64,000 nt of DNA, taken from the NCBI GenBank assembly GCA_963754845.1, contig CAVWHE010000006.1:15035-79034 (forward strand). The letters run 5' to 3'. Shown here piece by piece: positions 1,800 to 50,335 of this stretch. The position numbers and the translations under genes were made by a program. The stretch comes from an uncultured bacterium (GTDB lineage Bacteria; Babelota; Babeliae; Babelales; Vermiphilaceae). The notes under the pieces were generated by a model. That model saw nothing but the letters and a program-made list of their open reading frames with translations, did not search any database and had not been told where the DNA came from. Within the stretch, counting starts at the first letter, position 1. The number at the start of each line of letters is the position of its first letter.

Positions 1800-2196
1800 G
1801 TGCTATTCCCTCGATGCACTTCATCTGGTCCACGATTTCCGTAACAAAGCCATAGTGGACCGATCGATCGGCGTTGATGTAAACAGTTTTGTCGCGTCCA
1901 GATGCAACCATGTGCCGCAATTGTGTCATAAGAGCGCCGTTGGCGACGGGTGCGCCATTAAGATAGACGCGCTCATCTTTGTCGACATAAACAACCATAT
2001 CCTGCGTCGAACCACCATCTTCCTTGATACGTCCCCGCGGCAAGTTAACTTTAATGGCGTTGTGGACCATAGGTGTCGTGACCATGAAAATTATAAGAAG
2101 CGTCAAGGCCGTGTCAATAAGGGGGACAAGCGTTATTTCAGGCATGCTTGGCAGCGGGCGGACGCGGTGGCGTTTGCCGGTGTTCATGATCATCAC
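1771..2196 (-). CDS. tolR: TolR/ExbD biopolymer transport protein
   Basis: 141 aa. The ExbD/TolR signature is PEITLVPLIDTALTLLIIFMVTTPMV..VNLP. The 4-nt overlap with the upstream tolQ stop indicates coupling. Confidence 0.85.
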   Translation of the reverse strand: MMIMNTGKRHRVRPLPSMPEITLVPLIDTALTLLIIFMVTTPMVHNAIKVNLPRGRIKEDGGSTQDMVVYVDKDERVYLNGAPVANGALMTQLRHMVASGRDKTVYINADRSVHYGFVTEIVDQMKCIEGIAHVALATKPA

Positions 2197-2975: not shown

Positions 2976-4307
2976 TCATCCATGTACTTGAGCATCGCGC
3001 TTAGCGTGCAGGCGTGCAATGCCTTCGTCGATGGCAGAAATCTTTTTCTGAAAGTACTCGACGCGCTCGCGCGCTATTTTTTCTTCATGGAGGACGGCAG
3101 TTTCAACATCAAGTGCCACACCGAACACGAGTGCGTACGTTGTCGCATGCCATGACGCCGAACGCAGGCGCGTGTCGCGATGATGGAGCGTCAACATCCA
3201 GTCGTCGAGTGCGCGCGCCGTCGTCATAACTGCATACGCGTCATAGAACGCCTGAAAAAGTACCTGATTGGCTTCAACGGGACTCGAAGAAACCGTCCAC
3301 ACGATTGCCCCCTCTTCCCTGCCCGACACGTAAAGCCCTTGCGAGACGCGGGGGTGAATTTTGTAAAACTCTTCGTTGCGGACAAACGCACGCACGTCAA
3401 CACCAAACTTTGGCGGTGCATTCTGGCGACGATCGCCTGTGACGGAAATAGTCGCATCACGGGCAAAAAAATTTATGAAATCTTTTTCAACAACTCCACC
3501 AGGTCCTCTCCCGTAACTCGATATTCTCACGACCTCAGCGGTGTCGTCTGATGTTCCTGCCACCACGTACAACGAAAGCGGTAGTGTATCGAAGAATCGA
3601 TTCACAAGGGTTATAAGACCGTCCTGCGTATAAGGAGTGGGAGCTGCGCGCAGGGAAATTTCGCGTCTGAGAGCATAATTTTGCCAACGCCGTCTGTCTT
3701 CGTGATCGCCCCGGATGAGGATAACGTGGTCAGGATTGACGTAGAGAAGACGCGCAACCACAACGAGAGTTTCAAGAGCATACGCCGATCTTGACTCAAT
3801 GTTGCCGTTGACGATTATGAAATAACCGTCCTTCACAATTCTGAGGTGTTTGTCAATTATACCATCCTTTTCGAGTTTAAGCAGGTCGCGTGCAAACGAA
3901 TGGAAAGCTCCCTGTAATTCGCCAAAAATGACAAATTTTGTTCCAGGAACCGCATCAGTTTTTATAATAAAACGTCCTCCGCGGCCGCGGTCTTCCTGGT
4001 GCCTCACAACCTCTTTAAGGAGGGGCTCAACAACCTTGGGATCCCAGAGGGGCTTTACGAGCCCTAGTTTTGCAAAAAACGTATAAAAAAGGTGTGATTG
4101 TTGGCGTTCGTGGTATGACGAAAAATCAGGATTTTCCCAGTCGTTATTGTCGGGTTTTGGGTTTTCCTGAGTGCTCCGTGCGTAACGTTCGATCGCGCCC
4201 AGCGTATCAAAAATGTCTGGCACGTGGCCGGCTGCCGGTCCAACGTAGCATGCGATCCACGACAGCAGACAGTGGCACGCGTAAAAGCAAGCACTTTGTG
4301 TTTTCAT
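2976..4307 (-). CDS. Secreted protein with degenerate PPP (calcineurin-like) phosphoesterase module and C-terminal coiled coil; short paralog of the N-terminal ~450 aa of the 1580-aa protein
   Basis: The ORF runs 2976..4481. I place the start at ATG 4307 (MKTQSACFYACHCLLSWIACYVGPAAG, signal-like), because the longer form overlaps the upstream gene by 125 nt. PPP-like motif positions are present but substituted: FGELQG for GDxHG, NGNIESRS for GDxVDRG, and RGDHED for GNHE. It is alignable by eye to aa ~35-480 of ORF 5495..10237 (DWENPDFS / DWTAPDFS, PLWDPKVVE / RLWSPSVIE, LSLYVVAG / LALYCAVTG). Confidence 0.55.
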   Translation of the reverse strand: MKTQSACFYACHCLLSWIACYVGPAAGHVPDIFDTLGAIERYARSTQENPKPDNNDWENPDFSSYHERQQSHLFYTFFAKLGLVKPLWDPKVVEPLLKEVVRHQEDRGRGGRFIIKTDAVPGTKFVIFGELQGAFHSFARDLLKLEKDGIIDKHLRIVKDGYFIIVNGNIESRSAYALETLVVVARLLYVNPDHVILIRGDHEDRRRWQNYALRREISLRAAPTPYTQDGLITLVNRFFDTLPLSLYVVAGTSDDTAEVVRISSYGRGPGGVVEKDFINFFARDATISVTGDRRQNAPPKFGVDVRAFVRNEEFYKIHPRVSQGLYVSGREEGAIVWTVSSSPVEANQVLFQAFYDAYAVMTTARALDDWMLTLHHRDTRLRSASWHATTYALVFGVALDVETAVLHEEKIARERVEYFQKKISAIDEGIARLHAKRDAQVHG

Positions 4308-4356
4308 GGCAATTTTTATGCCCACGGCATTGCCGCAAAAAATCTTCACAACGTTC

Positions 4357-5430
4357 CTAAACATTGTGCAAAAAATAGTACCACGAACAAAGGAATCCAA
4401 CATGGAGAAAGGTGTAGACGAGACCTTTGAGCACAATAATGAACGGCTTAAGCTCAGCGAGTCGTATGAGAAAAATGGCAAGGGAAAAAATAATGAGCGT
4501 AGCCGTCAAAAAGAAAATAAAGACCTTGTCAGACAAAACAAAATAGCCAACTTTGGGCGACATGCCCTCGATGACAAAACGGTAACCCAGAAGCGCCGTC
4601 ACGCCGGCTGAAGCCAGCCCAAAAACGATCGTTGGATACCTTCGTGGATCAAGCGCCAAGGAAAAGAGACTTAAAAAGTAAATCATAAAGAGTGGCAAAA
4701 GTATGAGCATTGCATTGCGGAACCCAATGCGCCGCATACGCATTGAAAAAACCGCGCAGGGCCGGCTGATATTTCTTTTGGTTTCGTATTCATCGATAAC
4801 GATCTCTCGCCAACCAGTTCTTATCGAAGTGCCAAGAAGAAGCCACCCAATACGCTTTGAGAGTGCCGGCGAAAGCTCAAAGAACGGCGAATACGACCTA
4901 AAGATCATTTCACTGGGCACGGCTTTGTTATTGACAAGGACGAGGTCGATGCGGTGCGCATCGAAGGGAAAGAAGGCATAATCCATATCCGATTTAAAGC
5001 GCACACGGACGGTATAATGTGCAAAAAAGCGACCATCTACAACTTGAACACTCGGTTTTGATTGATGGATAATCTCGCCCTTTTCAAAGGAAAAGTTGCC
5101 AACGGTGCTCAGAGAAATAAGGGCGGGATCAAAACCAAACCAGAGCCCACCATCAAAGGTAAAATCACTGTTAACAAAATCGAAGGTGGGGAAATTTGTG
5201 ATGTACAAGCCGACGCTTACCCGTATCGGCACCCCTGCCCATTCCTTCACCATGCCAGGCGTCATCGGTGTCAGGAGAATTTCTTTTTCGGTTCCCACGA
5301 GTCGCGTGCAAGGACGATACGCTATGAGAACGGCAACAAGTGAGACTATGAGCATACCGATGACTTGGGGCACCGGGTGAGTAATGCGACCAAGAAGTCT
5401 CACCGGGAAAGCATCGCACGCTGATACCAT
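4357..5430 (-). CDS. Pentameric ligand-gated ion channel (Cys-loop receptor superfamily, GLIC/ELIC-like) homolog
   Basis: 357 aa. The extracellular-domain pattern is PIRVSVGLYITNFPTFDFVNSDFTFDGGLWFGFDPAL. The loop motif is MDYAFFPFDAHRIDLVL (compare FPFD.Q.l.l). Four hydrophobic helices follow: AMLILLPLFMIYFLSLFSLAL; IVFGLASAGVTALLGYRFVI with the PKVGYFVLSDK pre-M3 pattern; VFIFFLTATLIIFSLAIFLI; and IIVLKGLVYTFLHVGFLCSWYYFL. Confidence 0.6.
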   Translation of the reverse strand: MVSACDAFPVRLLGRITHPVPQVIGMLIVSLVAVLIAYRPCTRLVGTEKEILLTPMTPGMVKEWAGVPIRVSVGLYITNFPTFDFVNSDFTFDGGLWFGFDPALISLSTVGNFSFEKGEIIHQSKPSVQVVDGRFFAHYTVRVRFKSDMDYAFFPFDAHRIDLVLVNNKAVPSEMIFRSYSPFFELSPALSKRIGWLLLGTSIRTGWREIVIDEYETKRNISRPCAVFSMRMRRIGFRNAMLILLPLFMIYFLSLFSLALDPRRYPTIVFGLASAGVTALLGYRFVIEGMSPKVGYFVLSDKVFIFFLTATLIIFSLAIFLIRLAELKPFIIVLKGLVYTFLHVGFLCSWYYFLHNV

Positions 5431-5494
5431 AAAAATCGAGCCCCTTCACTCTGTGCGCAACCGAAAAGTGCCCTGCCGACTGCGCCGATTTCAT

Positions 5495-8400
5495 TCACAC
5501 GCTATATTCCTGCCAGGGACCTTTGCCAGGATCAATCCATATCTTATTAATGAGCCAGCGCCGCCCACTATTGAAAGACAAAGTGATTCCGCCCAGGTCG
5601 ACATCGACACAGGCTTCGGCTGCCTTAATTATTTTTTCGTTAGTCACCTTGCCATCAATACCTTGTATGAACCTCGTAAAGATCCGTGCACTTATGTAGG
5701 CTTGGAATGCAAGAGGATCCACAGCTATGCCGTTGCGCTCAGCAAACTTTCTAAAATCCTGCGCTATGGGCAGCGGTGATTCTGCAGGATTGGCAACGAG
5801 GCTTATAACAGAATACCTTATGCCACGATCCTTACAGTATTGTTTGAGATCGTTGGTATTGGTGAATCCGGACCCACCGACAAGGGGACACCGTACAAAA
5901 AAATCGTCGCCAAGTTCACGTATAACCTCCTTGGCAGCAGTTTGCGTGCCAAAGATAACGAGAACGTCGGGCGATTCGTTTTTAATTTTTTGCGCATGTA
6001 CGGAAAAATTGACGTCGGCCGATGTGTAGGGAATATCGACGCACGTGACTGTTCCTTCCTTGGCCGCCTCTCTTTTGAATCCGTCGGTGTTGTAGGCAAC
6101 GGCATCAAGGTAAAAAAGGGCGGCTTTGCGTGGTCCGTAGTTGTGTACAACAAATCTATACATGAAGGCCCCTTCCTCGAAGCCCGAAACGCCGAAGTTG
6201 ATAATATTTGTTTGCAAACGCTCTCTATAGGATGGTGATTCACTTATGGGAAACAGAACAATAAGATCGCCCCTCATGACCAGATCAAGGTACCGCTGAA
6301 GCGTGGGGCTACCGACGGGAGTGAGAATAATGTTTGTGTGATACGTACTCCTGAGCTCTTGAACATTGCGGCGCGCCTGTTCGGGGACGTAACCATCATC
6401 AAGAACACGAAGCCTCACCGTACGCGCTCCCAGGACGTTGTCCCTATCAAGCTCACTAAAGTACGTTTCAAGAGTGGTTTTGATGAGAATCCCCTCAGCC
6501 CGAAGGTGCCGTGTGTAATCGAGAGTGCTTCCGACAAAAATAACCTCCCGACCCTCTCTGTCGACCTTTGCCGCCTCTTTCGATACTGCAACACCCTCTT
6601 TTAATGGCAGTTGTGCTGGAGCGTGGCTCTTCGTACCTTTGTCCTCGGGAGCCACCGACATCTGATGCTCCGAAGAGTCGCTCAATGAATACTCGTACCA
6701 GGGGCCCGATCCTGGATCAATCCAAAATTTATTGATAAGGCGCCGCGTTGCAGGATCAAACGTCAGCGTGATCCCCCCGAGGTCGACTCCTTTGAGCTTT
6801 TCGGCGGCCTCTACAAGTGTTCTGCCTGTCACCGGTCCCTTGATCATACCCACAAGATGGGTAAACATTCGAGCGCTTATGTACGTTTGAAAGGCAACTG
6901 GTCCTTGGTCAATACCATGGTTGAGGGCAAACTCCTCAAAGTCTTGCGCAATCGGCAGATGGCACGTCTCATGGTCGGGAACGGTACTTACAAATGCGCA
7001 CGCAATGCCGCGGTCTTTGCAATATTTTTTGAAATAATTGACGTTGAGGAACGAAACAGCGCTCATGAGAGACCGTCCGGTCACAAAAGCGATGCCAAGT
7101 TCCCGTAAAAGTTCCATTGCCGGTGTAACATCACAAAAAAGCATGAGGATGCCGGGATCTTCTTCTTTAATTTTTTGTACCTGCGCCGCAAAATTTACAT
7201 CCGTTGGAACGTAGGAAACAGTCGCGTACGTCGCCGGATCCCGGTCCTTGAGCTTATGTTTTATTCCATCAAGGAGTCTGGGCGTCGTTGCCTCGAAGAA
7301 GACCACAATTTTATTGCGTTGTCCGTGAAGATCAGTGGCAAAATTATACATCGCCGCCCCCGACTCGAGGCTCGATATGCCAAAATTAACTATATTTTTA
7401 AAATTTTTTGCCCTAAAGATAGGTGATTCGCACAAGGGAAAAAGCACGGTAACACTGCCGCTTTTGACAAAATCAACGTAACGTGCGAGCGTAGGACTTC
7501 CAAGCGGTGTCAGAACTATATCAGTTTGATAGGACGAAACAAGCTCCTGAACATTGGCGCGTGCACGCTCAGGATCGTACCCGTCGTCGAGAACGCGGAG
7601 CTTAACCTTCTTGCCGTGCGACAACCGTGGATCCTTGTTGAAGTCATCAAAGTACGCCTCCAGCGTAACCTTAATGAAGGTTCCCATGATCTTTTCACTT
7701 TTAGTGAAATCGAGTGTACATCCTACGTTAATGACCTCCTGCGTAGTTTCTCGATGTTTCGGCTGCCCAGGCTTTCTTGGAGTCGCGCTGATGCCGCTAT
7801 CGGATCCACGGCCGACATCAATCTTGACGGTTTTTCCCTGTCCGAAATTAATCCACAACACGCTTGAAAGTCTGTGATGATAGTTATCAAAATCCAGGAG
7901 CATTCCACCAAAGTCAAAGGTGCGCATGCTTTCAAAAGACTTAATGAGCGCCCCTTTCGTGATAGGCCCGGGTATGCGCTTAACGGCCTCGATGAAAATG
8001 CGTGCACAGAGATACGTGGAAAGCGACAATTGGTTGATGTCGACTCCCGCCTCTTCCATATCTTTTCGATATTCCTGAATGATGGGAAGATTGCTGTAAT
8101 GCGGATCAGGCAGAGCGATACTCGAGATTAATTTTCCACCCCGCTCTTCAATAACCTTCCTCACGCTGTCAACGCTAAAAATGGACGGGGCAAAGAACAC
8201 TTTTCCGCGGACGAGCGAATCCGGCAGTTCGCGGAGGAAGGCGCGCGTAGGAACGTCAGGTGATAAAATGCCAACGCAGTCAAAATCGAGGTTTCGCACG
8301 GCGTCAAGTTGTTTCTCAAAGTTTACATCATTTTTTTCGTGGGTAATTTTTGTTACGGGAATATTTTTCTTCTCAAAGTAAAGGGAAATTGGGTTGGTCA

Positions 8401-10237
8401 GTTCTTCGACGGTACCCCCCTGAGCAAAAAGGACGACAGAGCGCGGATTTTCATGCTCGATAACATAGGGCACAAGGAGGCTAAGATCCTCTAAAAACGA
8501 AGGTCCAAAGTAAATGGCATAATCAATTTCGGGCGAACGTAGTCGGGGGTCGGCCGTGAGGGGAAAAAGAACGACAAGCTTGTGCTCCTTAACCAGCTTC
8601 AGACACGTCGCGAAAGCCTGGGGAGCAAAAGGCATGAATATTACGTCTGTGTTATATTTTGTCAGCAGAGTTTGCACGTTTGCCACTGCATTTTCAGCGC
8701 TGTATTGATCATCAAGAACGCGCCAGTTGATCGTCGTATTCGGTAATGTTCCCACTTTACGTGCCTTGTCAAAAACAAATTCCGTAACCTTGCTGATTAC
8801 CGTGCCGTAATTTTGGGCACCACGTGTGAGATCGACACTTGTTCCAAGAGATACGACGCGCTTTTCGGCAGTTACGCGCCCTTCAAGAGAAACTTTCGGA
8901 TGCTGAAGTGTCTTGGTTCCGCGATCTTTGATAACTCTTTCTACTTCTTCGTGACACGCGGCGAGGGACTTCTGGGCCGTGTCAAGTTTTTCCTCAAGAA
9001 CACTTCTTTCTGCCGTGGCGACGTCAATCTGTTCCAGCGTAACGTCGTGCGAACTTTCTGGTTCGCCAGTTGCAAAGTTGAAAGATGCTCGCGGTACGAG
9101 GGGACCATGCCTCCGGATATCTCTGCTGTAGAGCGTCAACGTCCACAAGCGTACACGAGCAGCCGTGTCAATAACGACAAAGGCCTCAGTCAAGAAACGG
9201 CACGCCACGCGATTAAAACCCACGGGACCCGATTCAAGTCTCCAGACTGTCGTTGCCCGCGTTGGATGAGCTACGCGCGCCCCGCTCGCCCGATGTGCCT
9301 GGCGGGTCGAGCAGCGCTCCCCCGTGACGCGAACGACGACGGGCTCGGCTGCCGCCGCGCTTTTCGGTGCCCCTCTTTCTTCGCCATTAACAGGGACAAT
9401 AGTACTATGCTGATCGCCGAAGGAGTCGACGTGCCGTGCTTCGTCAAATTCATAGCTATCAAGAGCTCCGTTGTCGACCTTAACAAGGTCAATGGCATGC
9501 TCGTTGCCAGTCACGGCACAGTAAAGAGCAAGGGGGAAAGTCTCTAAAAAGCGATCAATGATCTCGGAAACCACCGGCACATTAAGGCCACATGCCGTGC
9601 CTGCAATCTCAGTCCCCAGAGTGTTCTTTTTCCACGCTCCCTTTGCCTCCTCGTCGCCCATGATCGCCACAACATTGCTGGGATTTTCTTCCATGAGACG
9701 CGCACCAAGAAGAAGCGTATCAATGCCGTATGCCGAACCGACAAAAGTGTTGCCATTGAAAACTATGTAGACGTTTTTTTGGATTATTTTGAAATCTTTG
9801 TCAATGATTTTTTGTGTAATGAGAATATCAAGGTACCGTACGAGGGACTGAAAGGCTCCATGAAGGCCGGTGATGATGATGAGGCGCGCCCCAGGAACAG
9901 GCCGCAGCACGTAAACATGCTCATTTTCATGGCCAGCGGAAACACGTTTTTCAGTGAGCTTTGCGAGCCTTTTTTCAATAACCGATGGACTCCATAAGCG
10001 CGGAGAAAGACCGATAAATTCAAGCATACGTTCACGGAAATGCGGAGCTCGCCGAACGTACACGTTGCTGAAGTCCGGAGCGGTCCAGTCATCGCCGGCC
10101 GACCAGGGATGTTCATCAAGAGACTCCGCATAGACCTTCACGTCATCAAACGAGCCCCAGAGGGACACGGTTGACAAAGGCGCGACCTCCACCACCTCCG
10201 TGCGGCAGGATACGGCGGCGGCGAGCACGGCAACCAC
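5495..10237 (-). CDS. 1580-aa multidomain protein: degenerate PPP-phosphatase-like module, coiled coil, three tandem type-1 periplasmic-binding (LivK/ANF-receptor-like) domains
   Basis: This is a single uninterrupted ORF. The N-terminal module carries ITGLHG / NGNTFVGS / MGDEEA at the PPP motif positions (nt ~9450-9900). A coiled-coil segment (LEEKLDTAQKSLAACHEEVERV) follows. Then come three ~340-aa repeats at nt ~7800-8865, ~6690-7740 and 5498-6548. Each starts (V/I)xxG(T/C/S)(S/T)(V/L)D(L/F/Y)T, contains LRVLDDGY(D/V)PE(R/Q)AR.NVQEL...Y.T.I.LTP.GSPTL, and ends W(I)(N/D)(F/P)G.G. The start codon as listed is GTG, and MVAVLAAAVSC ends in a lipobox-like AVSC. Confidence 0.8.
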   Translation of the reverse strand: MVAVLAAAVSCRTEVVEVAPLSTVSLWGSFDDVKVYAESLDEHPWSAGDDWTAPDFSNVYVRRAPHFRERMLEFIGLSPRLWSPSVIEKRLAKLTEKRVSAGHENEHVYVLRPVPGARLIIITGLHGAFQSLVRYLDILITQKIIDKDFKIIQKNVYIVFNGNTFVGSAYGIDTLLLGARLMEENPSNVVAIMGDEEAKGAWKKNTLGTEIAGTACGLNVPVVSEIIDRFLETFPLALYCAVTGNEHAIDLVKVDNGALDSYEFDEARHVDSFGDQHSTIVPVNGEERGAPKSAAAAEPVVVRVTGERCSTRQAHRASGARVAHPTRATTVWRLESGPVGFNRVACRFLTEAFVVIDTAARVRLWTLTLYSRDIRRHGPLVPRASFNFATGEPESSHDVTLEQIDVATAERSVLEEKLDTAQKSLAACHEEVERVIKDRGTKTLQHPKVSLEGRVTAEKRVVSLGTSVDLTRGAQNYGTVISKVTEFVFDKARKVGTLPNTTINWRVLDDQYSAENAVANVQTLLTKYNTDVIFMPFAPQAFATCLKLVKEHKLVVLFPLTADPRLRSPEIDYAIYFGPSFLEDLSLLVPYVIEHENPRSVVLFAQGGTVEELTNPISLYFEKKNIPVTKITHEKNDVNFEKQLDAVRNLDFDCVGILSPDVPTRAFLRELPDSLVRGKVFFAPSIFSVDSVRKVIEERGGKLISSIALPDPHYSNLPIIQEYRKDMEEAGVDINQLSLSTYLCARIFIEAVKRIPGPITKGALIKSFESMRTFDFGGMLLDFDNYHHRLSSVLWINFGQGKTVKIDVGRGSDSGISATPRKPGQPKHRETTQEVINVGCTLDFTKSEKIMGTFIKVTLEAYFDDFNKDPRLSHGKKVKLRVLDDGYDPERARANVQELVSSYQTDIVLTPLGSPTLARYVDFVKSGSVTVLFPLCESPIFRAKNFKNIVNFGISSLESGAAMYNFATDLHGQRNKIVVFFEATTPRLLDGIKHKLKDRDPATYATVSYVPTDVNFAAQVQKIKEEDPGILMLFCDVTPAMELLRELGIAFVTGRSLMSAVSFLNVNYFKKYCKDRGIACAFVSTVPDHETCHLPIAQDFEEFALNHGIDQGPVAFQTYISARMFTHLVGMIKGPVTGRTLVEAAEKLKGVDLGGITLTFDPATRRLINKFWIDPGSGPWYEYSLSDSSEHQMSVAPEDKGTKSHAPAQLPLKEGVAVSKEAAKVDREGREVIFVGSTLDYTRHLRAEGILIKTTLETYFSELDRDNVLGARTVRLRVLDDGYVPEQARRNVQELRSTYHTNIILTPVGSPTLQRYLDLVMRGDLIVLFPISESPSYRERLQTNIINFGVSGFEEGAFMYRFVVHNYGPRKAALFYLDAVAYNTDGFKREAAKEGTVTCVDIPYTSADVNFSVHAQKIKNESPDVLVIFGTQTAAKEVIRELGDDFFVRCPLVGGSGFTNTNDLKQYCKDRGIRYSVISLVANPAESPLPIAQDFRKFAERNGIAVDPLAFQAYISARIFTRFIQGIDGKVTNEKIIKAAEACVDVDLGGITLSFNSGRRWLINKIWIDPGKGPWQEYSV

Positions 10238-10496
10238 GAAAATCGTGGGTGGCTGGCCACGTCGTGGCTGGCCACGTCGTGGTGGAACACATAGGGGGGG
10301 CGAAAAAGCTATGTTTAATGCTCTTCATCATGCTACCGACGCTTTTACAAAAACTGCTAGGTTGCGGAGGCATAAAAGCATGCGCACCGCTGCACCTGCG
10401 CAACATCATCCGCTTGCCCACTTCACCGTCAAGTCTTGTATATGCCCACATGAAAAAGCAACAAAAAAATGGGCGGAGCCAAGAGGGCCCTCTGCG

Positions 10497-12827
10497 GGAG
10501 CGCCAGGGGATTGTCCAACTCCCCTTGGATCCACAAAGGCAATAACAGCAAGAGTCCTCTCTGAAGAACGCCCTGCGACAGGGGGAAGGCCCTATGCGGG
10601 AGGCACCAACAGCCTGTTGGATCCTATTTTAAGAGAACCTCTGTGGGAGTGAATGCCCTATGACTGGGGGAAGGCCCTGCGCGGGCGGCGGAATTAATGC
10701 CCTACGCGGGCATGCGCCAAAGGGAGGGTTGCGCCGCCCAACCTCCCTCTGGACTCCCAAGGGCGCCAACAGCCTGTTGGATCCTCTCCCGCGCGGTTAT
10801 CCACGACACGACTTAATGGCTTGCCTTGCAGGGCAAGACAAACCATACGTCGGTCATGGGACGCGCTACCGGAAGCGCGAGGCGCGCACAGACCAAGGGG
10901 TGGTCAACTCCCCTTGGATCCCCAAAGGCAATAACAGCAAGAGTCTCTCTGAAGAATGCCCTGCGACAGGGAGAACGCCCTATGCGGGCGGCGGAATTAA
11001 TGCCCTATGCGGGCGGCACCAAAGGGAGGGTTGCACCACCCAACTCCCCTTGGATCCCAAAGGCAATAACAGCAAGAGTCCTCTCTGAATGCACTATGAT
11101 GGGGAGAACGCCCTATGCGGGCGGCGGAATTAATGCCCTACGCGGGCATGCGCCAAAGGGAGGGTTGCGCCGCCCAACCTCCCTCTGGACTCCCAAGGGC
11201 GCCAACAGCCTGTTGGATCCTCTCCCGCGCGGTTATCCACGACACGACTTAATGGCTTGCCTTGCAGGGCAAGACAAACCATACGTCGGTCATGGGACGC
11301 GCTACCGGAAGCGCGAGGCGCGCACAGACCAAGGGGTGGTCAACTCCCCTTGGATCCCCAAAGGCAATAACACCAAAAGCTTGTTTTGAATGCCCTGCGA
11401 CAGGGAGAACGCCCTATGGCGGGCGGCGGAATTAATGCCCTATGCGGGCGGCACCAAAGGGAGGGTTGCGCCGCCCAACCTCCCTCTGGACTCCCAAGGG
11501 CGCCAACAGCCTGTTGGATCCTCTCCCGCGCGGTTATCCACGACACGACTTAATGGCTTGCCTTGCAGGGCAAGACAAACCATACGTCGGTCATGGGACG
11601 CGCTACCGGAAGCGCGAGGCGCGCACAGACCAATCCCGCGCGTATATCCATGACACGACTTAATGGCTTGCCTTGCAAGGCAAGACAAACCATACGTCGG
11701 CCATGGGACGCGCTACCGGAGGTATACCTGAATGGCGCGCGGTGAGCGCGCGCAGGTTGCCAGCAATTCTATGAAAATTCACGCGAAAATAATCCAAAGC
11801 AACCAGATCGTGGAAAAATATTTTCCGGCAATCGCTGATGTTCTGCACCGGTGTTAGCCGCTTTTATGCAAGAGGTCTGCCTTCTATGAATGTGCCTTGG
11901 TATCATTCCGGTAGCGCGTCCCATGACCGACGTATGGTTTGTCTTGCCCTGCAAGGCAAGCCATTAAGTCGTGTCGTGGATAACCGCGCGGGAGAGGATC
12001 CAACAGGCTGTTGGCGCCCTTGGGAGTCCAGAGGGAGGTTGGGCGGCGCAACCCTCCCTTTGGTGCCGCCCGCATAGGGCGTTCTCCCTGTCGCAGGGCA
12101 TTCAAAACAAGCTTTTGGTGTTATTGCCTGGGGTCTCCAAGGGGAGTTGACCACCCCTTGGTCTGTGCGCGCCTCGCGCTTCCGGTAGCGCGTCCCATGA
12201 CCGACGTATGGTTTGTCTTGCCCTGCAAGGCAAGCCATTAAGTCGTGTCGTGGATAACCGCGCGGGAGAGGATCCAACAGGCTGTTGGCGCCCTTGGGAG
12301 TCCAGAGGGAGGTTGGGCGGCGCAACCCTCCCTTTGGTGCCGCCCGCATAGGGCGTTCTCCCTGTCGCAGGGCATTCAAAACAAGCTTTTGGTGTTATTG
12401 CCTGGGGTCTCCAAGGGGAGTTGACCACCCCTTGGTCTGTGCGCGCCTCGCGCTTCCGGTAGCGCGTCCCATGACCGACGTATGGTTTGTCTTGCCCTGC
12501 AAGGCAAGCCATTAAGTCGTGTCGTGGATAACCGCGCGGGAGAGGATCCAACAGGCTGTTGGCGCCCTTGGGAGTCCAGAGGGAGGTTGGGCGGCGCAAC
12601 CCTCCCTTTGGCGCATGCCCGCGCAGGGCATTAATTCCGCCGCCCGCGCAGGGCCTTCCCCCAGTCATAGGGCATTCACTCCCACAGAGGTTTTCTTAAA
12701 ATAGGATCCAACAGGCTGTTGGTGCCGCCCGCATAGGGCGTTCTCCCTGTCGCAGGGCATTCAAAACAAGCTTTTGGTGTTATTGTCTGGGGATCCAAGG
12801 GGAGTTCGGACAATCCCCTGGCGCTCC
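10497..12827. repeat. 2.3-kb composite imperfect palindrome (mosaic of GC-rich hairpin modules in tandem units); non-coding
   Basis: The left arm (10497-11720) and right arm (11907-12827) are reverse complements, and their outer and inner ends match. The marker CTTAATGGCTTGCC occurs at 10812, 11248, 11549 and 11659 on the plus strand. Its complement occurs at 11960, 12234 and 12508. Confidence 0.85.
11908..12455. repeat. Two exact-period 274-bp tandem units of the right arm (a third, variant unit starts at 12456)
   Basis: CCGGTAGCGCGTCCCATGACCGACG recurs at 11908, 12182 and 12456. Identical 76-aa phantom ORFs appear at 12011..12241 and 12285..12515. Confidence 0.85.
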
Positions 12828-12873: not shown

Positions 12874-14598
12874 CTATACAGTACAACGCAACGCTGCTTG
12901 CCAAACGGCAACATCAGGGTACGCACTGCCCGCGCTCGCCGATCCTGCTGCGCAGTACACGCAATCACCTGAACACGCGCACCAGTCGACGGCGTTAACA
13001 GCACTATTAAACTGCGCCCCTGCGATGGCCTTCAAAACGTGCTCATGCGGGGCCCGTTCATAGATGATAACGTTGGCCTGCTGTCCGAGCGCGTTGTCTA
13101 AAATTCCGGCAGCGGCCAGATATTTACACGGACAGCTCGGGTACCAAGCGACGCTCTTGATGCTTTTAAGACCATTTGCAGCCATCGTTGCACTTGCAAA
13201 CTCTTTGAGCCCAAGATCATTGGCCAGAGCGTAAAGAACGACGTTTTTCCCCTGCGTATTTGCCGGCGTGCAACCAACGGCAAGAATGGGCATATTCGGG
13301 CACGTGGCACCGGGACAGCACCAGGAAAGCATGTTGACAGCCCCGGAACAGCACCGTTGGGCAATCGGGCTCGGTTGCCCGATATCGGAGGCCGCTGCAT
13401 CGGTAAAGGCGTACACAAAGATGACGGGATTGGCGCACACGGGGACCCGTTTAACACGGCACGGCGCAGAACCAGAACGGTCGCCATCGACCGACCTGCC
13501 GGTGCTCGTTGTAGCGACAGGTGAAACATTTTGAAAAAAGTGTTGGCAACACGGCCACGTTGAGCCGTTGGAACAACATAGAGTTTGATTGGACTGGCAG
13601 TAGGCCATATTGGCACAGTTGCAGCACGGTCCGCCCGGCCCTGACGGCGTGCAGCACGCCGCGCTGTTGGTCGTGCAGTAATCGTTATGTGAACAAAGAC
13701 ACGCAAGAGTCTCCTGACACGCAGGATTGCTGCAGTTGGGAGTTTCAGGGTCGCACGGCGTGCCGCCGGCTGCTAATAAGGGCGGGTATCCCGCTCTGCA
13801 GCACCACGACAGCGCCATAACCGTGACGGGGGTCTGAAGAGAGTACGTCGGATCGTCAGAAATGCAGGACTCGGAGTTGTTATAAGGGGGGCCGTAAAAG
13901 GAGAGAACGCGCGCTGTTGCTCCGTCAGTTCCTGCTGTTCCCCCGATGGCCAGGCAAGCGAGGTCAATGGCATCGTCGGTGATATCGGGGACGTACGCAC
14001 CGCACGACCTACAAAGCCACGCGAGAGAATACAGAGGAGCTCCGTGAGTATAGCCGGTAACGCAGTCAAAAGCGAGATCGCCCCCTAGCGTATCAAGCAC
14101 ATATACGAGCACATCGCCCGTGGCACCGCTGCCGAACGACCCGTCGGTAAGGTTGGAACCGGCAACGGCAAGATAGTACAGGTCATCGCCAGCGTAACAC
14201 CAGGCAAGGGCGTTGACAGTATTTCCCGTAGCAATTGTCAGCGCCACATCCAAGCTCCCGGTATCTGTATCGATCGTATAAATACGCACCGTTGCCCCAT
14301 CGATGGGACTTTGAACACCACCGATAGCGAGCGCACAAAAACTCATACCGGTATCGTCGAAAAAAGCGTTGGCCGGGCAACACCAGGCGACAGCATTCAC
14401 GTCGGCACCGTGTATCTCATTGTATTTATAAAGGAGGCTCCCTGAATGGCCGCAGGAACGTGAAAGCAGCTTTGGAGCAGCGCTGTCCAACGGAGTGCCG
14501 GCCCAAAAATACGTTGGTACAAGAGAGAGCAAAACTATCGCGTAACAAAAACCGACACCTAAAGACGCTGAAACCGAACCGTGCTTTCTGAAAACCAT
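12874..14598 (-). CDS. Cys-rich seven-bladed WD40-like beta-propeller protein with N-terminal signal/anchor and a ~75-aa Cys-knot insertion
   Basis: The ORF runs 12874..14628. The likely start is ATG 14598 (MVFRKHGSVSASLGVGFCYAIVLLSLV). Seven spaced copies of V.a.aWC......lA.gG are present: VNAVAWCC, VNALAWCY, LYSLAWLC, VMALSWCC, VNMLSWCC, IKSVAWYPSC, VNAVDWCAC. Between blades 4 and 5 lies the insertion CDPETPNCSNPACQETLACLCSHNDYCTTNSAACCTPSGPGGPCCNCANMAYCQSNQTLCCSNGSTWPCCQ. Confidence 0.6.
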   Translation of the reverse strand: MVFRKHGSVSASLGVGFCYAIVLLSLVPTYFWAGTPLDSAAPKLLSRSCGHSGSLLYKYNEIHGADVNAVAWCCPANAFFDDTGMSFCALAIGGVQSPIDGATVRIYTIDTDTGSLDVALTIATGNTVNALAWCYAGDDLYYLAVAGSNLTDGSFGSGATGDVLVYVLDTLGGDLAFDCVTGYTHGAPLYSLAWLCRSCGAYVPDITDDAIDLACLAIGGTAGTDGATARVLSFYGPPYNNSESCISDDPTYSLQTPVTVMALSWCCRAGYPPLLAAGGTPCDPETPNCSNPACQETLACLCSHNDYCTTNSAACCTPSGPGGPCCNCANMAYCQSNQTLCCSNGSTWPCCQHFFQNVSPVATTSTGRSVDGDRSGSAPCRVKRVPVCANPVIFVYAFTDAAASDIGQPSPIAQRCCSGAVNMLSWCCPGATCPNMPILAVGCTPANTQGKNVVLYALANDLGLKEFASATMAANGLKSIKSVAWYPSCPCKYLAAAGILDNALGQQANVIIYERAPHEHVLKAIAGAQFNSAVNAVDWCACSGDCVYCAAGSASAGSAYPDVAVWQAALRCTV

Positions 14599-14922
14599 AA
14601 CGTTGCCCTCTTTTTGAGGCGGTGGCAATCACGTGCTTCTTTTTCAAAAACAACAATCGCCGCACTCCGTTTTACGCTTCTCCATATGAGCTTGCGTGCC
14701 CAGACATGCCAAAAGAACCACCATCATCAGGATATGGCTTCCGGCCTTACCTTTATCAACGTAGTTTTGAAGTGCCATGGCATGGATCCCTTTTTTTGCA
14801 CGTCATCGTTAATTTTGGAACCTCGCGTATCTGCACTGTTATCACGATATCACAACGCCCAAGCACACCGAAACACTTAACTTTTAAGCGATGGGATTTT
14901 TGGCTTAAACAACGAGAATTTT

Positions 14923-16067: not shown

Positions 16068-17222
16068 TCAGCACGATCCTCCTGTGTCGTGAGCATCAGC
16101 CATGAGTTCTATCCAAATTTCATTGAGAACTTTTTCTGGTATTTTCGCCCTGAAAAAAGCCATACGGGCGAACTGCGTGTCGGGGGGGCAAAATTGTTCG
16201 TTTTCGCTTTTTTGCAAGCGCCTGATCGGCGGGCACATACCGTAAAGTTCGCGGTGGCGCTCGAGGACATCGGCACGATACAGGTAATTAATAAATTCGT
16301 AGGCAAGATCGTCCTTGGTGCTTTTTCCTGCAAGAGCGAAAGAATCTATGACAACAAAACCCCCCTCGCGTGGAACGATAAAATCGATATAAGGATGGGT
16401 TTTTTTGATGCGCAAAACATCTGGTCCCGTGGCAACAACAACGGGACAACTCTGGCTTAAAAGGAGATTTTCGGCACCGCTTTCCGTGTACGCTTCGACC
16501 CACGCGCGTTGCTCAGAAAGTACTTTTTGTATCGCACGAATATGTTCTGAGCCAATTTCGTCTTGAGCTCCGAAGAGATAAAAACAGGCAAGGAGAACGG
16601 CCTCGCGGGCTGATTCGGGCATACCGACTGTCCAGGACACTTTGTTTTTGTCAAAAATAAGCCCCCACGAAGCCTCAGGAACCGGACCATTGCCATTGTT
16701 ATTGAAAAAACGCGTGTCAATCCCGAGGCCGTAAACTGCCCAAAGGTAGGGAAGAGTGTATTTGTTGCCCCTATCAAAATAAAGGTCAAGGAGCTTGCCA
16801 TCGAGTTCGTGCCAAAAACGGATTTTCGTTGTATCTATCCTTTTTATAAGGCCGTCATCAACGAGCGCCTGGACGATGTAGTCGGAGGGAATTATAATAT
16901 CGTAGCCTGTGCCACCTGTCGCCTTGAGTTTGCTAAAAAGCTCTTCATTTGTTTCGTAGTAGCTCACATTGACCTTGATGCCCGTCTCTCGCTCAAAGGC
17001 TTGCAAGCACGTATTGTCAATGAGCATGGGCCATGTGAAAACGTTGATGCTTCGCGAGCCTTTAAAAAGCTGAATTACGTGAGAGAATCCCACAAAAACG
17101 AGGAGTACGCAGAGCCAAAAAACAAACATCAAACTACGTACAGCAACGGTAGTCCAGTGTGTGCAGAGCATACGTAGTCTCCGAAGGATTACAAACATTG
17201 TTCCCGGCGCTGATATCACCAA
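16068..17222 (-). CDS. potD: Spermidine/putrescine ABC transporter substrate-binding protein
   Basis: It has an N-terminal anchor. A PotD-like block follows: INVFTWPMLIDNTCLQAFERETGIKVNVSYYETNEELFSKLKATGGTGYDIIIPSDY. It is the last gene of a potA-B-C-D ordered operon. Confidence 0.8.
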   Translation of the reverse strand: MVISAPGTMFVILRRLRMLCTHWTTVAVRSLMFVFWLCVLLVFVGFSHVIQLFKGSRSINVFTWPMLIDNTCLQAFERETGIKVNVSYYETNEELFSKLKATGGTGYDIIIPSDYIVQALVDDGLIKRIDTTKIRFWHELDGKLLDLYFDRGNKYTLPYLWAVYGLGIDTRFFNNNGNGPVPEASWGLIFDKNKVSWTVGMPESAREAVLLACFYLFGAQDEIGSEHIRAIQKVLSEQRAWVEAYTESGAENLLLSQSCPVVVATGPDVLRIKKTHPYIDFIVPREGGFVVIDSFALAGKSTKDDLAYEFINYLYRADVLERHRELYGMCPPIRRLQKSENEQFCPPDTQFARMAFFRAKIPEKVLNEIWIELMADAHDTGGSC

Positions 17223-17243
17223 AACTTAGTGTATCGCGAACGT

Positions 17244-18029
17244 TTACCCCGTGAAAGAAAAACCTTTGCGCGTTTGCATGAATGCCATGAGAACAATAAT
17301 AAAGCTCCCGAAACCAAGGAGGACAACCGAAAGAGCGTTGACCATAGGAGAGCCTCCCGCGCGTACGGCGGAAAAAATATAGAGGGGTAGCGTTTGCACC
17401 TGAGCCCCGGCGCAAAAAAACGCTATCAAGAAATCATCAAGCGATACGACAAAAATAAGAAGCGATGAGGCCACGAGCGAAGGAGTTAAAAGCGGGAGAA
17501 TAATTTTGCCAAATGTTTGCAGGTGCGTTGCCCCCAGGTCAAGCGAAGCCTCGCTGAGGTGTTTTTCAAGTTCAGCATACCGTGCATTGATCGTGGGGAC
17601 TGCATAACCGAGACCCAGGAGTGTGTGCCCGGCAATAAGGGTCGTGTAACCGAGTGGTACGTGAAGAAGCGAGAAAAAACCCAGAAGGCCAACGGCGACG
17701 ATAACTTCCGGAACAAGGAGGGCCCCGTAAAAGAGTGCAAAAAAGCGACGAAATCTATCGGGGCTGTAACACACAAGAAAAGCCGCCATCGTTATGCTGA
17801 GAAAGACGCTTGAAAGTGCAACAATGAGTGAATCACGCAAGGCAAGCCATGCTTGGCGTGAGGCAAAAAGCTGCACGTACCAACGCAAGGAAAAGCCTCC
17901 CCACTCGTAGGCCACTGATGAGGAACTCAATGAAAAAACGACAAGAACGGCGATGGGAACGTAGAGAAAAATAAAAAAAAGGGCAACGAACATCGGCAGA
18001 GCTACGCGTGAGCACGATGTGCTTTTCAT
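17244..18029 (-). CDS. potC: Spermidine/putrescine ABC transporter permease
   Basis: 261 aa with six hydrophobic segments. The BPD-transporter EAA-type loop is LEKHLSEASLDLGATHLQTFGKIILPLL. Confidence 0.8.
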   Translation of the reverse strand: MKSTSCSRVALPMFVALFFIFLYVPIAVLVVFSLSSSSVAYEWGGFSLRWYVQLFASRQAWLALRDSLIVALSSVFLSITMAAFLVCYSPDRFRRFFALFYGALLVPEVIVAVGLLGFFSLLHVPLGYTTLIAGHTLLGLGYAVPTINARYAELEKHLSEASLDLGATHLQTFGKIILPLLTPSLVASSLLIFVVSLDDFLIAFFCAGAQVQTLPLYIFSAVRAGGSPMVNALSVVLLGFGSFIIVLMAFMQTRKGFSFTG

Positions 18030-18041
18030 CTTTGCCTCTCC

Positions 18042-18914
18042 TTATGAGCCACGCGTTTTAACAACGCCCGCTTGCTTGCTTAAGTAACGGTATATAAAAA
18101 ACGACGCGCATACGACAACACAGCTACTTATACACGTAAAAGCCGAGCCCAGGGCAAAATTGCGCACCGTCAGATAGTAATACGAAATGAGCGAGCCGAC
18201 GAACATTTGTTTGCCTCCCCCCAGGAGCGCGGGGATAACAAATTCGCCAAAAACAGGGATAAAGACGAGAAAAAAACCCGTACGCACGCCCGGCGAAGAA
18301 AGAGGCATGATGACGTGAAGCCACGTTGCCCACCACCGCGCCCCGAGATCAAGTGACGCCTCAATGAGCCGCTCGTCGAGCTTTTCGAAAATTGCATAGA
18401 GCGGCAAAATCATGAAGGGAACGTAGCAGTATACCATGCCCACGTACACGGCCCACGGCGTGTTGAGTATGTGGACGGGGCTTCCGACAATACCGAGTTT
18501 CAAAAGAATGGTATTGAGAAGACCCGCGCGACCAAGCATAAAGAACCATGCGTAGGCCTGTATGAGAAGGTTGACGCTAAAAGGGAGCATGACGAGAAAA
18601 AGGAGGACATTTTTCCAACGCCGGGCACGGCGCGCAATGAAATAGGCGACAGGGTATCCCACGACAAGACATACCGTCGCCGTGGAAAATGCCAAAAAGA
18701 GCGACCGGCGTATGATGGCCAGGTAAGGCCAATCGATAAAGTTCACGTAATTGCCGAGACTCATGATGGAAAATGCCGATGTCGATGATGTCGTCACACA
18801 AAAACTTTGCGCAATAACCGTGGTGAGGGGAACGTAAAAAAAGAGGACGATCCAGGCAACCGCCGGCATGGAAACAAAAAACGCCACGTCCTTGCGCACT
18901 AAAAACTTGAACAT
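18042..18914 (-). CDS. potB: Spermidine/putrescine ABC transporter permease
   Basis: 290 aa. The EAA loop is LDERLIEASLDLGARWWATWLHVIMPLSSPG. It lies between potA and potC. Confidence 0.8.
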   Translation of the reverse strand: MFKFLVRKDVAFFVSMPAVAWIVLFFYVPLTTVIAQSFCVTTSSTSAFSIMSLGNYVNFIDWPYLAIIRRSLFLAFSTATVCLVVGYPVAYFIARRARRWKNVLLFLVMLPFSVNLLIQAYAWFFMLGRAGLLNTILLKLGIVGSPVHILNTPWAVYVGMVYCYVPFMILPLYAIFEKLDERLIEASLDLGARWWATWLHVIMPLSSPGVRTGFFLVFIPVFGEFVIPALLGGGKQMFVGSLISYYYLTVRNFALGSAFTCISSCVVVCASFFIYRYLSKQAGVVKTRGS

Positions 18915-18932
18915 CTGCGCCCCTACACATCT

Positions 18933-43582: not shown

Positions 43583-43689
43583 CGAAGACCTCGAAAAGCA
43601 CATTGACCAAACAACAACAAAAAGCACACACGATACAACCGCCTATCACAAGACCGCCAACGCACCGGCTGACCGCGCACTGACCACAA

Positions 43690-50308: not shown

Positions 50309-50335
50309 AAATTTGGTCATCTTTATGTCAAGGTT

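Follow-up and report, generated by a model that had tools for sequence, protein, structure and literature searches.

A divergent pentameric channel encoded with pseudo-phosphatase and periplasmic-binding modules, probably forming a multi-part bacterial sensor-channel

The three-gene locus

Positions 2976-10237 of the window, the whole 64-kb stretch of DNA analyzed, hold three co-directional genes on the minus strand that encode a giant protein, a channel homolog (C) and a short protein. The giant combines a PPP-like module (P) with three type-I periplasmic-binding domains (B), and the short protein carries P only. The ORF listing of the window bears out the layout given in the first-pass annotation, with intergenic gaps of 64 nt (giant to channel) and 49 nt (channel to short gene) and an end 48 nt before tolQ, whose longest ORF spans 2193-2927. 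The features are as follows.

5495..10237, minus strand: gene of the giant protein (P+B+B+B), GTG start, 1580 aa; ORF, translation, Pfam and a public 1609-aa variant
9038..10141, minus strand: P module of the giant (PPP-like, pseudo-phosphatase), residues ~33-400; BLASTP match to the short paralog, E 4e-47
8888..9037, minus strand: giant linker from P to the first binding domain, residues ~401-450; aligned with the C-terminal helix in the AF2 model of the short protein
7835..8863, minus strand: PBP domain 1 (Peripla_BP_6 type), residues ~459-801; Pfam and internal-repeat mapping
6683..7741, minus strand: PBP domain 2, residues ~833-1185; best Pfam stretch 836-1173
5498..6550, minus strand: PBP domain 3, residues ~1230-1580; internal-repeat mapping
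4357..5430, minus strand: divergent pentameric ligand-gated ion channel (pLGIC) homolog, 357 aa; profile match, AF2 and Foldseek
5305..5376, minus strand: extra N-terminal transmembrane helix of the channel, residues 19-42; AF2 helix H19-42, block pLDDT ~89-93
4726..5253, minus strand: periplasmic beta-sandwich of the channel, residues ~60-235; AF2, Foldseek and family alignment
4363..4722, minus strand: M1-M4 channel domain, residues 237-356; GLIC profile match, AF2 and family alignment
4561-4635, minus strand: M2, within the M1-M4 channel domain
2976..4307, minus strand: short gene (P only), 443 aa; Metallophos, BLASTP, profile search, AF2 and Foldseek

The 49-nt gap holds for a short-gene start at the 4307 ATG. 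Public gene callers instead place the start at an ATG at 4364, for 462 aa and an 8-nt overlap with the channel stop, and the maximum ORF (2976-4481) extends to 501 aa. The start of the giant gene is likewise uncertain, as a second assembly of the same locus is 4 bases shorter at a short tandem repeat, which brings an upstream ATG into frame and would lengthen the giant to 1609 aa. Pfam and NCBIfam confirmed TolQ, TolR and TolA-like gene neighbors; the juxtaposition with tolQ is peculiar to this genome and is not conserved in relatives.

Architecture of the channel and its partner modules

The divergence of the 357-aa protein puts it beyond the reach of the Pfam Neur_chan models, none of which matched it, and yet it passes both profile and structure tests as the pLGIC that had been proposed from the letters alone. 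A single-sequence search gave DeCLIC as the best PDB match (E 6e-5), and a 29-sequence family profile matched GLIC (E 3e-13). The AF2 model (pLDDT 89.4, pTM 0.79) returned pLGICs for 50 of the 50 PDB matches listed by Foldseek, at E ~1e-15 and probability 1.0. These profile and model comparisons show the protein to be a very divergent pLGIC subunit built from an N-terminal anchor helix, a periplasmic beta-sandwich and four membrane helices, its C-terminus being predicted to be periplasmic. The extra N-terminal helix is preceded by a partly conserved cytoplasmic motif (family consensus FFxxIVxPxxQ). In the beta-sandwich the Pro-loop motif FPFD lies at 4960-4971; its F-P is family-invariant, F154, P155 and H159 of FPFD(D)H are invariant in the channel family, and W97, F98, F113 and Y139 are invariant as well. 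Numbered back from the conserved M2-M3 proline rather than from coordinates, the window channel has Thr at 9' and Phe at 16' of M2; across the family 9' is Thr in 24 of the 29 sequences, 13' is Gly, Ala or Ser, 6' is Ala, Thr or Gly, and the 16' Phe is invariant.

The giant begins with a hydrophobic N-terminus bearing a lipobox-like VSC, followed by the pseudo-PPP module, a helical linker and the three type-I periplasmic-binding domains. The linker is assigned by homology as a helix or coiled coil, on its alignment with helix 401-442 in the AF2 model of the short paralog. Three type-1 binding domains had been claimed for this protein, and Pfam finds Peripla_BP_6 in three stretches (E 2.9e-69), along with ANF_receptor at E 5.8e-9. 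The closest solved structure to PBP domain 2 is 4kv7, a Leu/Ile/Val-binding protein (E 5e-11), and the 48% identity between PBP domains 2 and 3 indicates a recent duplication inside the giant. Peripla_BP_6 proteins bind many classes of compound. Pfam scans of the ORFs in the 64-kb window, and within 10 kb in three relatives, detected no Liv-type permease or ATPase genes, which argues against an ABC-transporter binding-protein role for the B domains.

In the short protein a signal-like helix (residues 1-27) leads into the PPP-fold core, and residues 401-442 form a long helix at the C-terminus. The proposed homology of this protein to the N-terminal non-PBP part of the giant holds: giant residues 33-442 align with it at 27% identity (BLASTP E 4e-47). 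It scores 24.5 bits against the Pfam Metallophos cut-off of 21.5, the P-family profile matches BSU1, PP2A, PP1 and PP5 at E 7e-9 to 1e-5 among the 60 chains listed, and its AF2 model (pLDDT 88, pTM 0.87) retrieves PP5, PP2A, PP1 and calcineurin with Foldseek at E ~1e-11. All six of the checked motif I-III residues are kept in only 3 of 151 P-family representatives; the short protein (GELQG / NGNIESRS / GDHED) retains two of the six and the giant (TGLHG / NGNTFVGS / GDEEAK) one, and the C-terminal half of the module has no conserved His. On these alignments both proteins are shown to carry a PPP-phosphatase-fold module whose catalytic metal-binding residues have been lost. The PPP-like label of the first-pass annotation thus stands as to fold and is refined to catalytically degenerate pseudo-phosphatases.

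A signal-like hydrophobic segment occurs at the N-terminus of 130 of the 151 P-family proteins, and in C+P+B fusions P comes immediately after M4, without another membrane helix in between, an order that in pLGICs puts P on the side of the ligand-binding domain. The signal-like N-termini and the order of parts after M4 suggest that P, P+B and the fused parts would all face the periplasm. A Lys/Arg-rich linker after M4 in the L035 C+P+B fusion would, under the positive-inside rule, hint at a cytoplasmic location, at odds with the signal peptides carried by the free forms.

Conservation of the cassette in relatives

We sampled 38 genome loci from relatives, mostly from records titled Dependentiae/TM6/Babeliales. 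A P module lies directly after the channel gene on the same strand at 37 of 45 evaluable channel genes, usually fused to one to three B domains, and two further channel genes are themselves fused to B; no match to C, P or B was found on the opposite strand in the 38 loci, and overlapping genes are frequent in the cassettes. The trio, whose co-occurrence in relatives had been put forward as a check, is a conserved cassette and not a chance neighborhood, and P modules are the component linked most tightly to the channel. Distances between channels correlate with distances between P modules (r = 0.775, a value reached by 0 of 2000 permutations), which is confounded by shared phylogeny and, so qualified, suggests that cassettes may duplicate as units.

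Single-chain C+P+B fusions occur in L035 (twice), L036, P0143, P0185 and P0197, and a C+B fusion occurs twice in L016. Of the genomic evidence, the single-polypeptide C+P+B forms of some genomes speak most strongly for a physical system of several subunits, and together with the conserved co-occurrence they lend weight to the multi-subunit sensing system first suggested for the window. Three channel genes, those of L011 (from a complete 1.64-Mb chromosome), L031 and L034, have neither P nor B within reach, implying that the channel may work alone; several loci hold more P+B genes than channel genes, so that some P+B proteins may have channel-independent roles.

The sensor-channel reading and its comparison with known systems

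We consider it somewhat better than an even prospect that the three genes encode parts of one periplasm-facing receptor-channel in which sensing by B is passed via P to channel gating. The small-molecule ligand of the LivK-type Venus-flytrap B domains would possibly be an amino acid; on binding it they would act through P, a putatively non-enzymatic docking or adaptor module, to change gating, so that a chemical signal in the periplasm would be turned into ion flux or an altered membrane potential. For this trio we infer both the amino-acid ligand and the ion flux. The P-only short protein may serve as a second, sensor-less accessory subunit. The system probably reads host-derived metabolites. 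It is probably a multi-part sensor-channel, not described before, of bacteria living inside protists; on this explanation the cassette would have arisen within Dependentiae-type bacteria as an invention of that lineage, often present in several copies.

The channel might instead be gated by its own extracellular domain, through pH, Ca2+ or a small ligand, with P and P+B acting only as modulators, assembly or stability factors, or inhibitors. We regard this as unlikely, if the most credible of the alternatives: the full beta-sandwich with its invariant aromatics is kept, three loci have channels that lack P and B, and in DeCLIC an accessory domain modulates rather than triggers gating (PMC12664993), but the tight adjacency of C to P and the repeated Venus-flytrap fusions fit sensing more simply. 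Less probable still is a solute conduit, in which B captures a host metabolite and the pentameric pore passes the solute itself down its gradient; if true, this would be a new type of binding-protein-dependent uptake, suited to an energy-poor intracellular parasite. In bacteria that depend on a host and have small genomes the cassette has expanded to several copies, B domains are numerous relative to channels, ABC permease genes are absent nearby in the window and three relatives, and the family M2 is small or polar at 9', 13' and 6', where other pLGICs have a hydrophobic gate. The invariant 16' Phe, however, could form a conventional hydrophobic constriction of the kind reported for ELIC, the pore-lining assignment depends on counting from a proline, and we know of no pLGIC that transports metabolites.

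The least probable alternative, in our estimate, is co-regulation without physical coupling, where P+B proteins would serve, as periplasmic binding proteins or as enzymes, some transporter or pathway encoded elsewhere and would sit beside the channel gene only through shared expression; in a sub-variant, P is an active periplasmic phosphoesterase that frees the ligand from phosphorylated host metabolites. One JGI record labels a fusion protein as a branched-chain amino-acid ABC substrate-binding protein, and the phosphoesterase variant can draw on the three family members with a full set of checked residues and on the above-threshold Metallophos score of the short protein. Set against these are six or more distinct sequences in which C is covalently joined to B, with or without P, the failure to find Liv-type permease genes near the cassette in the window and three relatives, and catalytic residues that are unconserved across the family and largely missing from both window copies.

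The receptor-channel reading has its closest counterpart in the bacterial pLGICs described by Tasneem, Iyer, Jakobsson and Aravind in 2004, with N-terminal PBP-I fusions and with PBP-II or Cache operon partners (PMC549065); the first-pass annotation was correct in recalling such N-terminal fusions. Both sets join a pLGIC core to periplasmic-binding-type sensors, fused or separately operon-encoded, under the same proposed logic of an extra small-molecule sensor cooperating with the channel. Here, in contrast, PBP-I lies on separate secreted proteins or C-terminally after M4, a PPP-fold pseudo-phosphatase stands between channel and sensor as the most constant partner (the word 'phosphatase' occurs 0 times in the text of PMC549065), the cassette is multi-copy with most loci from Dependentiae/TM6/Babeliales-titled records, and the channel escapes the Neur_chan models.

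DeCLIC of Desulfofustis (PDB 6v4a, 9ftg) is a pLGIC whose gating is modulated by periplasmic accessory domains, N-terminally fused lobes reported to resemble Ca2+-binding regulatory domains of other prokaryotic proteins (PMC12664993). Our channel model is close to it in structure (rmsd ~4.5 A), whereas the aligned 9' residue is Leu in DeCLIC and Thr in this family, and the PBP and PPP modules of the cassette are not described for DeCLIC in that paper. With GLIC, ELIC and sTeLIC the channel shares the fold, the Pro-loop motif and the four-helix channel domain at a sequence identity of 12-19%, and its family adds the N-terminal membrane helix, the polar 9' position and obligatory-looking partner genes. 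P shares the catalytic-domain fold and remnants of motifs I-III with PP5, PP2A, PP1, calcineurin and BSU1; unlike PPP Ser/Thr phosphatases, it is without the conserved metal-binding and catalytic residues, is predicted to reach the periplasm by secretion and is found joined to binding-protein domains or to the channel, so that an enzyme-like structure would come with no expected enzymatic function. Eukaryotic ionotropic glutamate receptors and class-C GPCRs, which carry Venus-flytrap domains, resemble the cassette, by analogy only, in coupling a LivK/ANF-type clamshell sensor to a membrane channel or receptor. The tetrameric glutamate receptors belong to a channel family unrelated to pLGICs, and coupling here would presumably be non-covalent, or run through a C-terminal fusion via a pseudo-enzyme adaptor.

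Organization of the trio and of the surrounding window

The first-pass annotation had described three consecutive minus-strand genes, spaced by 64 and 49 nt and ending 48 nt before tolQ, and the ORF scan reproduces this arrangement in strand, size and spacing:

5495-10237, minus strand, giant protein, 1580 aa
4357-5430, minus strand, channel, 357 aa
2976-4481, minus strand, short protein, maximum 501 aa

In what follows, C denotes the channel, P the PPP-like pseudo-phosphatase module and B a Peripla_BP_6 type-I periplasmic-binding (PBP) domain, so that the giant protein is P+B+B+B and the short protein P only. The giant and channel genes lie 64 nt apart, and the short gene, read from ATG 4307, encodes 443 aa and lies 49 nt from the channel; an alternative ATG at 4364, overlapping the channel stop by 8 nt, yields the 462 aa found in public records. 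The longest tolQ ORF begins 48 nt beyond the end of the short gene and opens a run of TolQ, TolR and TolA-like genes (Pfam, NCBIfam), which a second assembly of this locus extends by a TolB-like gene further along. Within tolR, at 2090-2117 (minus) and upstream of the TolA-like gene, lies a perfect sigma-70 consensus (TTGACA, spacer of 16 nt, TATAAT, 12/12). The number of terminator-like sites is at chance level for the region (15 observed, 13.6 expected from shuffling), and the sole internal candidate is a weak hairpin at 4347-4368 (minus) with a 9-bp stem, three G-C pairs and a T-rich tail, which spans the channel stop codon between the short gene's two possible starts and could act as a weak terminator or attenuator or be there by chance. 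Just upstream of the GTG start of the giant gene, the 15-bp tandem repeat CCACGACGTGGCCAG is present in two copies (10253-10282, minus; 240-275 in L001, the same locus in a Logan assembly). The Logan assembly has 4 bases fewer at this repeat, which brings an upstream ATG (MKSIKHSFF...) into frame and gives a giant protein of 1609 aa instead of 1580 aa, a difference attributable either to assembly error or to strain or phase variation touching the signal peptide.

That the giant protein carries three type-1 PBP domains is confirmed by PF13458 (Peripla_BP_6), which matches three stretches at 234.8 bits (cut-off 31.7, E 2.9e-69), by PF01094 (ANF_receptor; 35.9 bits) and by self-comparison, which delimits domain 1 (residues ~459-801), domain 2 (833-1185) and domain 3 (1230-1580). 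The last two share 48% identity and are on that ground read as a recent duplication. The nearest solved structure to domain 2 is the Leu/Ile/Val-binding protein 4kv7 (E 5e-11).

Elsewhere, the window codes for a Kup potassium transporter, a MacB-type efflux system and the following features:

16068-20048, minus strand, complete ABC importer: SBP_bac_8 binding protein, two BPD_transp_1 permeases and an ATPase with TOBE domain
44406-45299, minus strand, eukaryote-like C2H2 zinc-finger protein
31142-32587, plus strand, ankyrin-repeat protein
42614-43627, minus strand, ankyrin-repeat protein
21662-22342, minus strand, integrase-core (rve) ORF, 226 aa, probably a transposase or insertion-sequence remnant
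32820-36182, minus strand, ORF of 1120 aa without Pfam match (E <= 1e-3 or 1e-4)
12874-14628, minus strand, ORF of 584 aa without Pfam match (same thresholds)
55035-57341, plus strand, ORF of 768 aa without Pfam match (same thresholds)
61248-62714, minus strand, ORF of 488 aa without Pfam match (same thresholds)
48829-50419, RNA cluster: bacterial small SRP RNA and three tRNA genes

No rRNA was found within the 64-kb window. Ankyrin-repeat and C2H2 proteins are typical of intracellular-symbiont effector repertoires, and the ankyrin, zinc-finger, Kup, MacB-type and Tol genes together fit a host-associated diderm bacterium. The G+C content of the window (51.7%) exceeds that of all related loci (30 to 48%).

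Identity of the channel and of the PPP-like module

The first-pass proposal that the 357-aa protein is a pentameric ligand-gated ion channel (pLGIC) is upheld by profile searches and structure prediction. As a single sequence the protein retrieves DeCLIC (E 6e-5) and sTeLIC (E 3e-3). A profile built from 29 homologs reaches GLIC at E 3e-13 (residues 144-347) and brings in 146 PDB sequences at E <= 0.01. The AF2 model (pLDDT 89.4, pTM 0.79) comprises an N-terminal helix, a beta-sandwich with strands over residues 69-234 and four membrane helices (237-259, 266-290, 299-324 and 329-356), and when it is compared with the PDB by Foldseek, 50 of the 50 matches listed are pLGICs (E ~1e-15, TM 0.55-0.72). 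The Pro-loop motif FPFD(D)H, whose FPFD occupies residues 154-157 in the beta6-beta7 loop, has F154, P155 and H159 invariant (29/29), and none of the Cys residues (5, 41, 225 and 348) flanks this loop; a Cys pair around the Pro-loop is not expected in prokaryotic pLGICs. The expected Neur_chan Pfam match failed to appear for the window protein, which has zero Pfam matches, whereas the pLGIC fold and family-profile matches stand; each of Neur_chan_LBD and Neur_chan_memb is touched weakly by just one of the 29 family members (E 0.009 and 0.054), and the NCBIfam model LGIC_1 gives 18.9 bits where its cut-off is 500. From these sequence matches, the model with its Foldseek matches and the invariant Pro-loop residues, we conclude that the protein is a genuine, very divergent pLGIC, a predicted superfamily member by fold and profile that falls outside current curated models. 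A word-indexed search places its family at 51 clusters (90% identity), the members of which have no Pfam domain on record and are named 'hypothetical protein' wherever a source names them.

Two features set this family apart. The M2 helix (window 4561-4635), with its register inferred from the alignment by counting from the conserved M2-M3 proline, has Thr (24/29) or Ser (3/29) at 9', Gly, Ala or Ser at 13', and invariant Arg 15' and Phe 16' (the latter 29/29), so that in this numbering 27 of the 29 sequences have a polar residue in place of the canonical hydrophobic Leu/Ile gate at 9'; this lining could mean an atypical gate. Residues 1-42 (window 5305-5430) hold an extra N-terminal membrane helix after a partly conserved FFxxIVxPxxQ, and the confidence with which AF2 models it suggests a retained fifth membrane helix and not a cleaved signal peptide.

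The short protein proved, as claimed, to be a paralog of the giant N-module (27% identity to giant residues 33-442, E 4e-47). Its Metallophos score lies just over the Pfam cut-off (24.5 versus 21.5 bits), and a profile of 39 P sequences retrieves PPP Ser/Thr phosphatases, led by BSU1 (E 7e-9) with PP2A, PP1 and PP5 weaker. AF2 models the short protein (pLDDT 88.3, pTM 0.87) as a PPP core framed by an N-terminal helix and a long C-terminal helix, and this model matches PP5, PP2A, PP1 and calcineurin in Foldseek (E 2e-11 to 4e-9, probability 1.0). We then scored six PPP positions, two in each of three motifs (Asp and His in GDxHG; first Asp and Arg in GDxVDRG; Asn and His in GNHE), whose canonical residues are kept in 82, 43, 51, 93, 42 and 93 of 151 P representatives, in that order, and all together in just 3 of the 151. 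The short protein (GELQG / NGNIESRS / GDHED) retains two of the six and the giant P module (TGLHG / NGNTFVGS / GDEEAK) one. PPP enzymes normally conserve, in their C-terminal half, two histidines that serve as metal ligands (PP1 His173 and His248); across the 151 P sequences no column between residues 204 and 400 exceeds 26% His. What is conserved in them instead is AFHS...R, N191-P192, E203, W208, W337, S341-x-P and D356, and because this alternative set of positions is maintained, a binding or scaffold role fits better than catalysis. By predicted fold and aligned residues, then, P is a pseudo-phosphatase that has the PPP fold and has lost the catalytic residues. An exhaustive search of 1.84 billion representatives recovered 509 members of the family (50% identity representatives) at E <= 1e-30, a number that rises to 1694 at E <= 1e-10; lengths cluster at the sizes expected of P, P+B, P+B+B and P+B+B+B, with a maximum of 3020 aa.

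Conservation, fusion and topology of the cassette

A scan of species-representative genomes, onto which the window proteins were mapped, returned 38 related loci, the majority titled Candidatus Dependentiae, TM6, Babeliales or Babeliaceae, some carrying the unverified titles 'Pseudomonadota' or 'Alphaproteobacteria', and a few being short contigs in other bins. It is from these titles, and from no marker in the window itself, that the link to Dependentiae is drawn. These loci contain 49 channel genes, 45 of them with enough downstream sequence to score. A P module lies directly downstream on the same strand in 37 of the 45; in two the channel is fused to B, and in six nothing follows, three of these being a few kb from another cassette. 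Among the matches in the 38 loci no C, P or B gene is on the opposite strand. P usually carries between one and three fused B domains (P+B, P+B+B, P+B+B+B). The cassette also takes other forms, among them [B][C][P], cassettes in tandem, and a single channel with as many as three P+B genes after it. The genes flanking the cassette vary between genomes. Distances between channels correlate with those between adjacent P modules (r = 0.775, reached in 0 of 2000 permutations), a correlation to which shared phylogeny contributes. We conclude from this gene order that the trio is a conserved cassette, and the co-occurrence predicted for relatives is thus observed. In locus L003 the gene after the channel encodes a short-type P with B+B attached, and the next one a giant-type P with one B, whereas in the window every B domain sits on the giant-type protein; this comparison suggests two P subtypes in the window's clade. 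Separately, the locus L011/L042 (OY970257.1, a 1.64-Mb chromosome) encodes at 10001-11077 a channel 49% identical to that of the window, with no P or B gene within 10 kb and with LRR proteins, DJ-1/PfpI proteins and enolase as neighbours.

In some lineages the parts are covalently joined. A single ORF encodes C+P+B at L035 5809-9189 and 9899-13255 (two paralogs) and at L036 9872-13180, where M4 leads through a ~35-residue linker into the conserved P start. The same architecture occurs in three P-family proteins of the representative search (P0143, of 1113 aa, P0185 and P0197), which come from independent 50%-identity clusters, and L016 6358-11146 carries two C+B fusions without P. The L035 and L036 MAGs are titled 'Alphaproteobacteria bacterium' and the L016 MAG 'uncultured Pseudomonadota', unverified titles that could reflect mis-binning or transfer among co-resident endosymbionts. 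Together with the linkage, these fusions lend comparative-genomic backing to the first-pass reading of sensor and channel as one system. A pLGIC has its C-terminus on the side of the membrane where its ligand-binding domain is found, and 130 of 151 free P or P+B proteins have a signal-peptide-like hydrophobic start; from these two independent lines we infer that the channel ligand-binding domain, P and B are all periplasmic, with the caveat that the post-M4 linker of L035 is Lys/Arg-rich.

Proposed mechanism and relation to known systems

What the three parts are is established, as are their close linkage in many genomes, their covalent fusion in some lineages and the loss of catalytic residues from P, and they probably share a periplasmic location. 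We propose that P would serve as an adaptor docking onto the channel, and that the B domains would act as Venus-flytrap sensors that pass their ligand state on to the gating of the channel, with ion flux as the output. In the window, the P-only short protein would be an accessory subunit without a sensor, and the giant protein would supply three sensors. The unusual M2 lining (Thr 9', Gly/Ala/Ser 13') leaves room for a different output, a wider solute-conducting pore supplied by the binding proteins.

Other roles fare less well. One of the fusions is annotated as an ABC substrate-binding protein, and such a role for the B proteins was considered; among the window ORFs scanned with Pfam there was no BPD_transp_2-type permease as a LivHMGF partner, the window's sole ABC importer found (16068-20048, minus) is unrelated to the Liv type and has a binding protein of its own, and no Liv-type permease lies within 10 kb in three relatives. 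Since no Liv-type permease gene was found nearby and fusions to the channel exist, the ABC-transporter role is disfavoured. An active periplasmic phosphatase is rejected for the window's two P copies because the catalytic residues are missing. Despite the adjoining tol genes, a functional Tol-Pal link is also rejected because this adjacency is restricted to the window's genome: TolQ, TolR and TolA were matched in L001 only and in none of the 38 related loci. A defence-system role is rejected as well, PADLOC returning zero matches for the giant, channel and short proteins.

At its widest, the receptor-channel mechanism proposed here would define a previously unrecognised class of tripartite receptor-channels in which a secreted pseudo-phosphatase is the obligatory adaptor docking Venus-flytrap sensors outside a pentameric ligand-gated channel, gated by a liganded partner protein and not by free ligand, and which, in Dependentiae as obligate intracellular bacteria, branched into numerous paralogous cassettes that read host metabolites or even let them in; we regard this full formulation as speculative and rather doubtful. 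pLGICs rank among the central drug targets and serve as models of allostery. The cassette offers a natural split system, single-chain in relatives, in which sensor, pseudo-enzyme adaptor and channel are separable, so that gating of a pLGIC by a partner protein becomes directly testable. It also gives a plausible role to a family unflagged by current Pfam models, adds a probable periplasmic example to the known pseudo-phosphatases, and suggests that Dependentiae, little-known intracellular bacteria of protists, have a sensory or ion-flux capacity specific to their lineage.

Our searches of the literature on Dependentiae channels and on pLGIC neighbourhoods and operons found no account of this cassette and no link between Dependentiae and ligand-gated channels, and a text search of a Pro-loop receptor inventory paper found no accessory-domain terms. 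The closest precedents are the bacterial pLGICs of Tasneem et al. 2004 (PMC549065), which carry N-terminal PBP-I fusions or have PBP-II or Cache genes in predicted operons, and whose PBP and Cache domains were proposed to cooperate with the channel, and DeCLIC, a structurally characterised pLGIC with an accessory periplasmic domain (PMC12664993). In the Tasneem proteins, PBP-I is inserted between the signal peptide and the ligand-binding domain, whereas in the window it resides on a separate protein and in relatives either on separate P+B proteins or C-terminally, after M4. New here are the predicted pseudo-PPP module as constant partner, PBP-I domains carried by secreted proteins of their own or attached C-terminally, the extra N-terminal membrane helix of the model, the polar 9' position and the multi-copy cassettes, mostly in records titled Dependentiae, TM6 or Babeliales.
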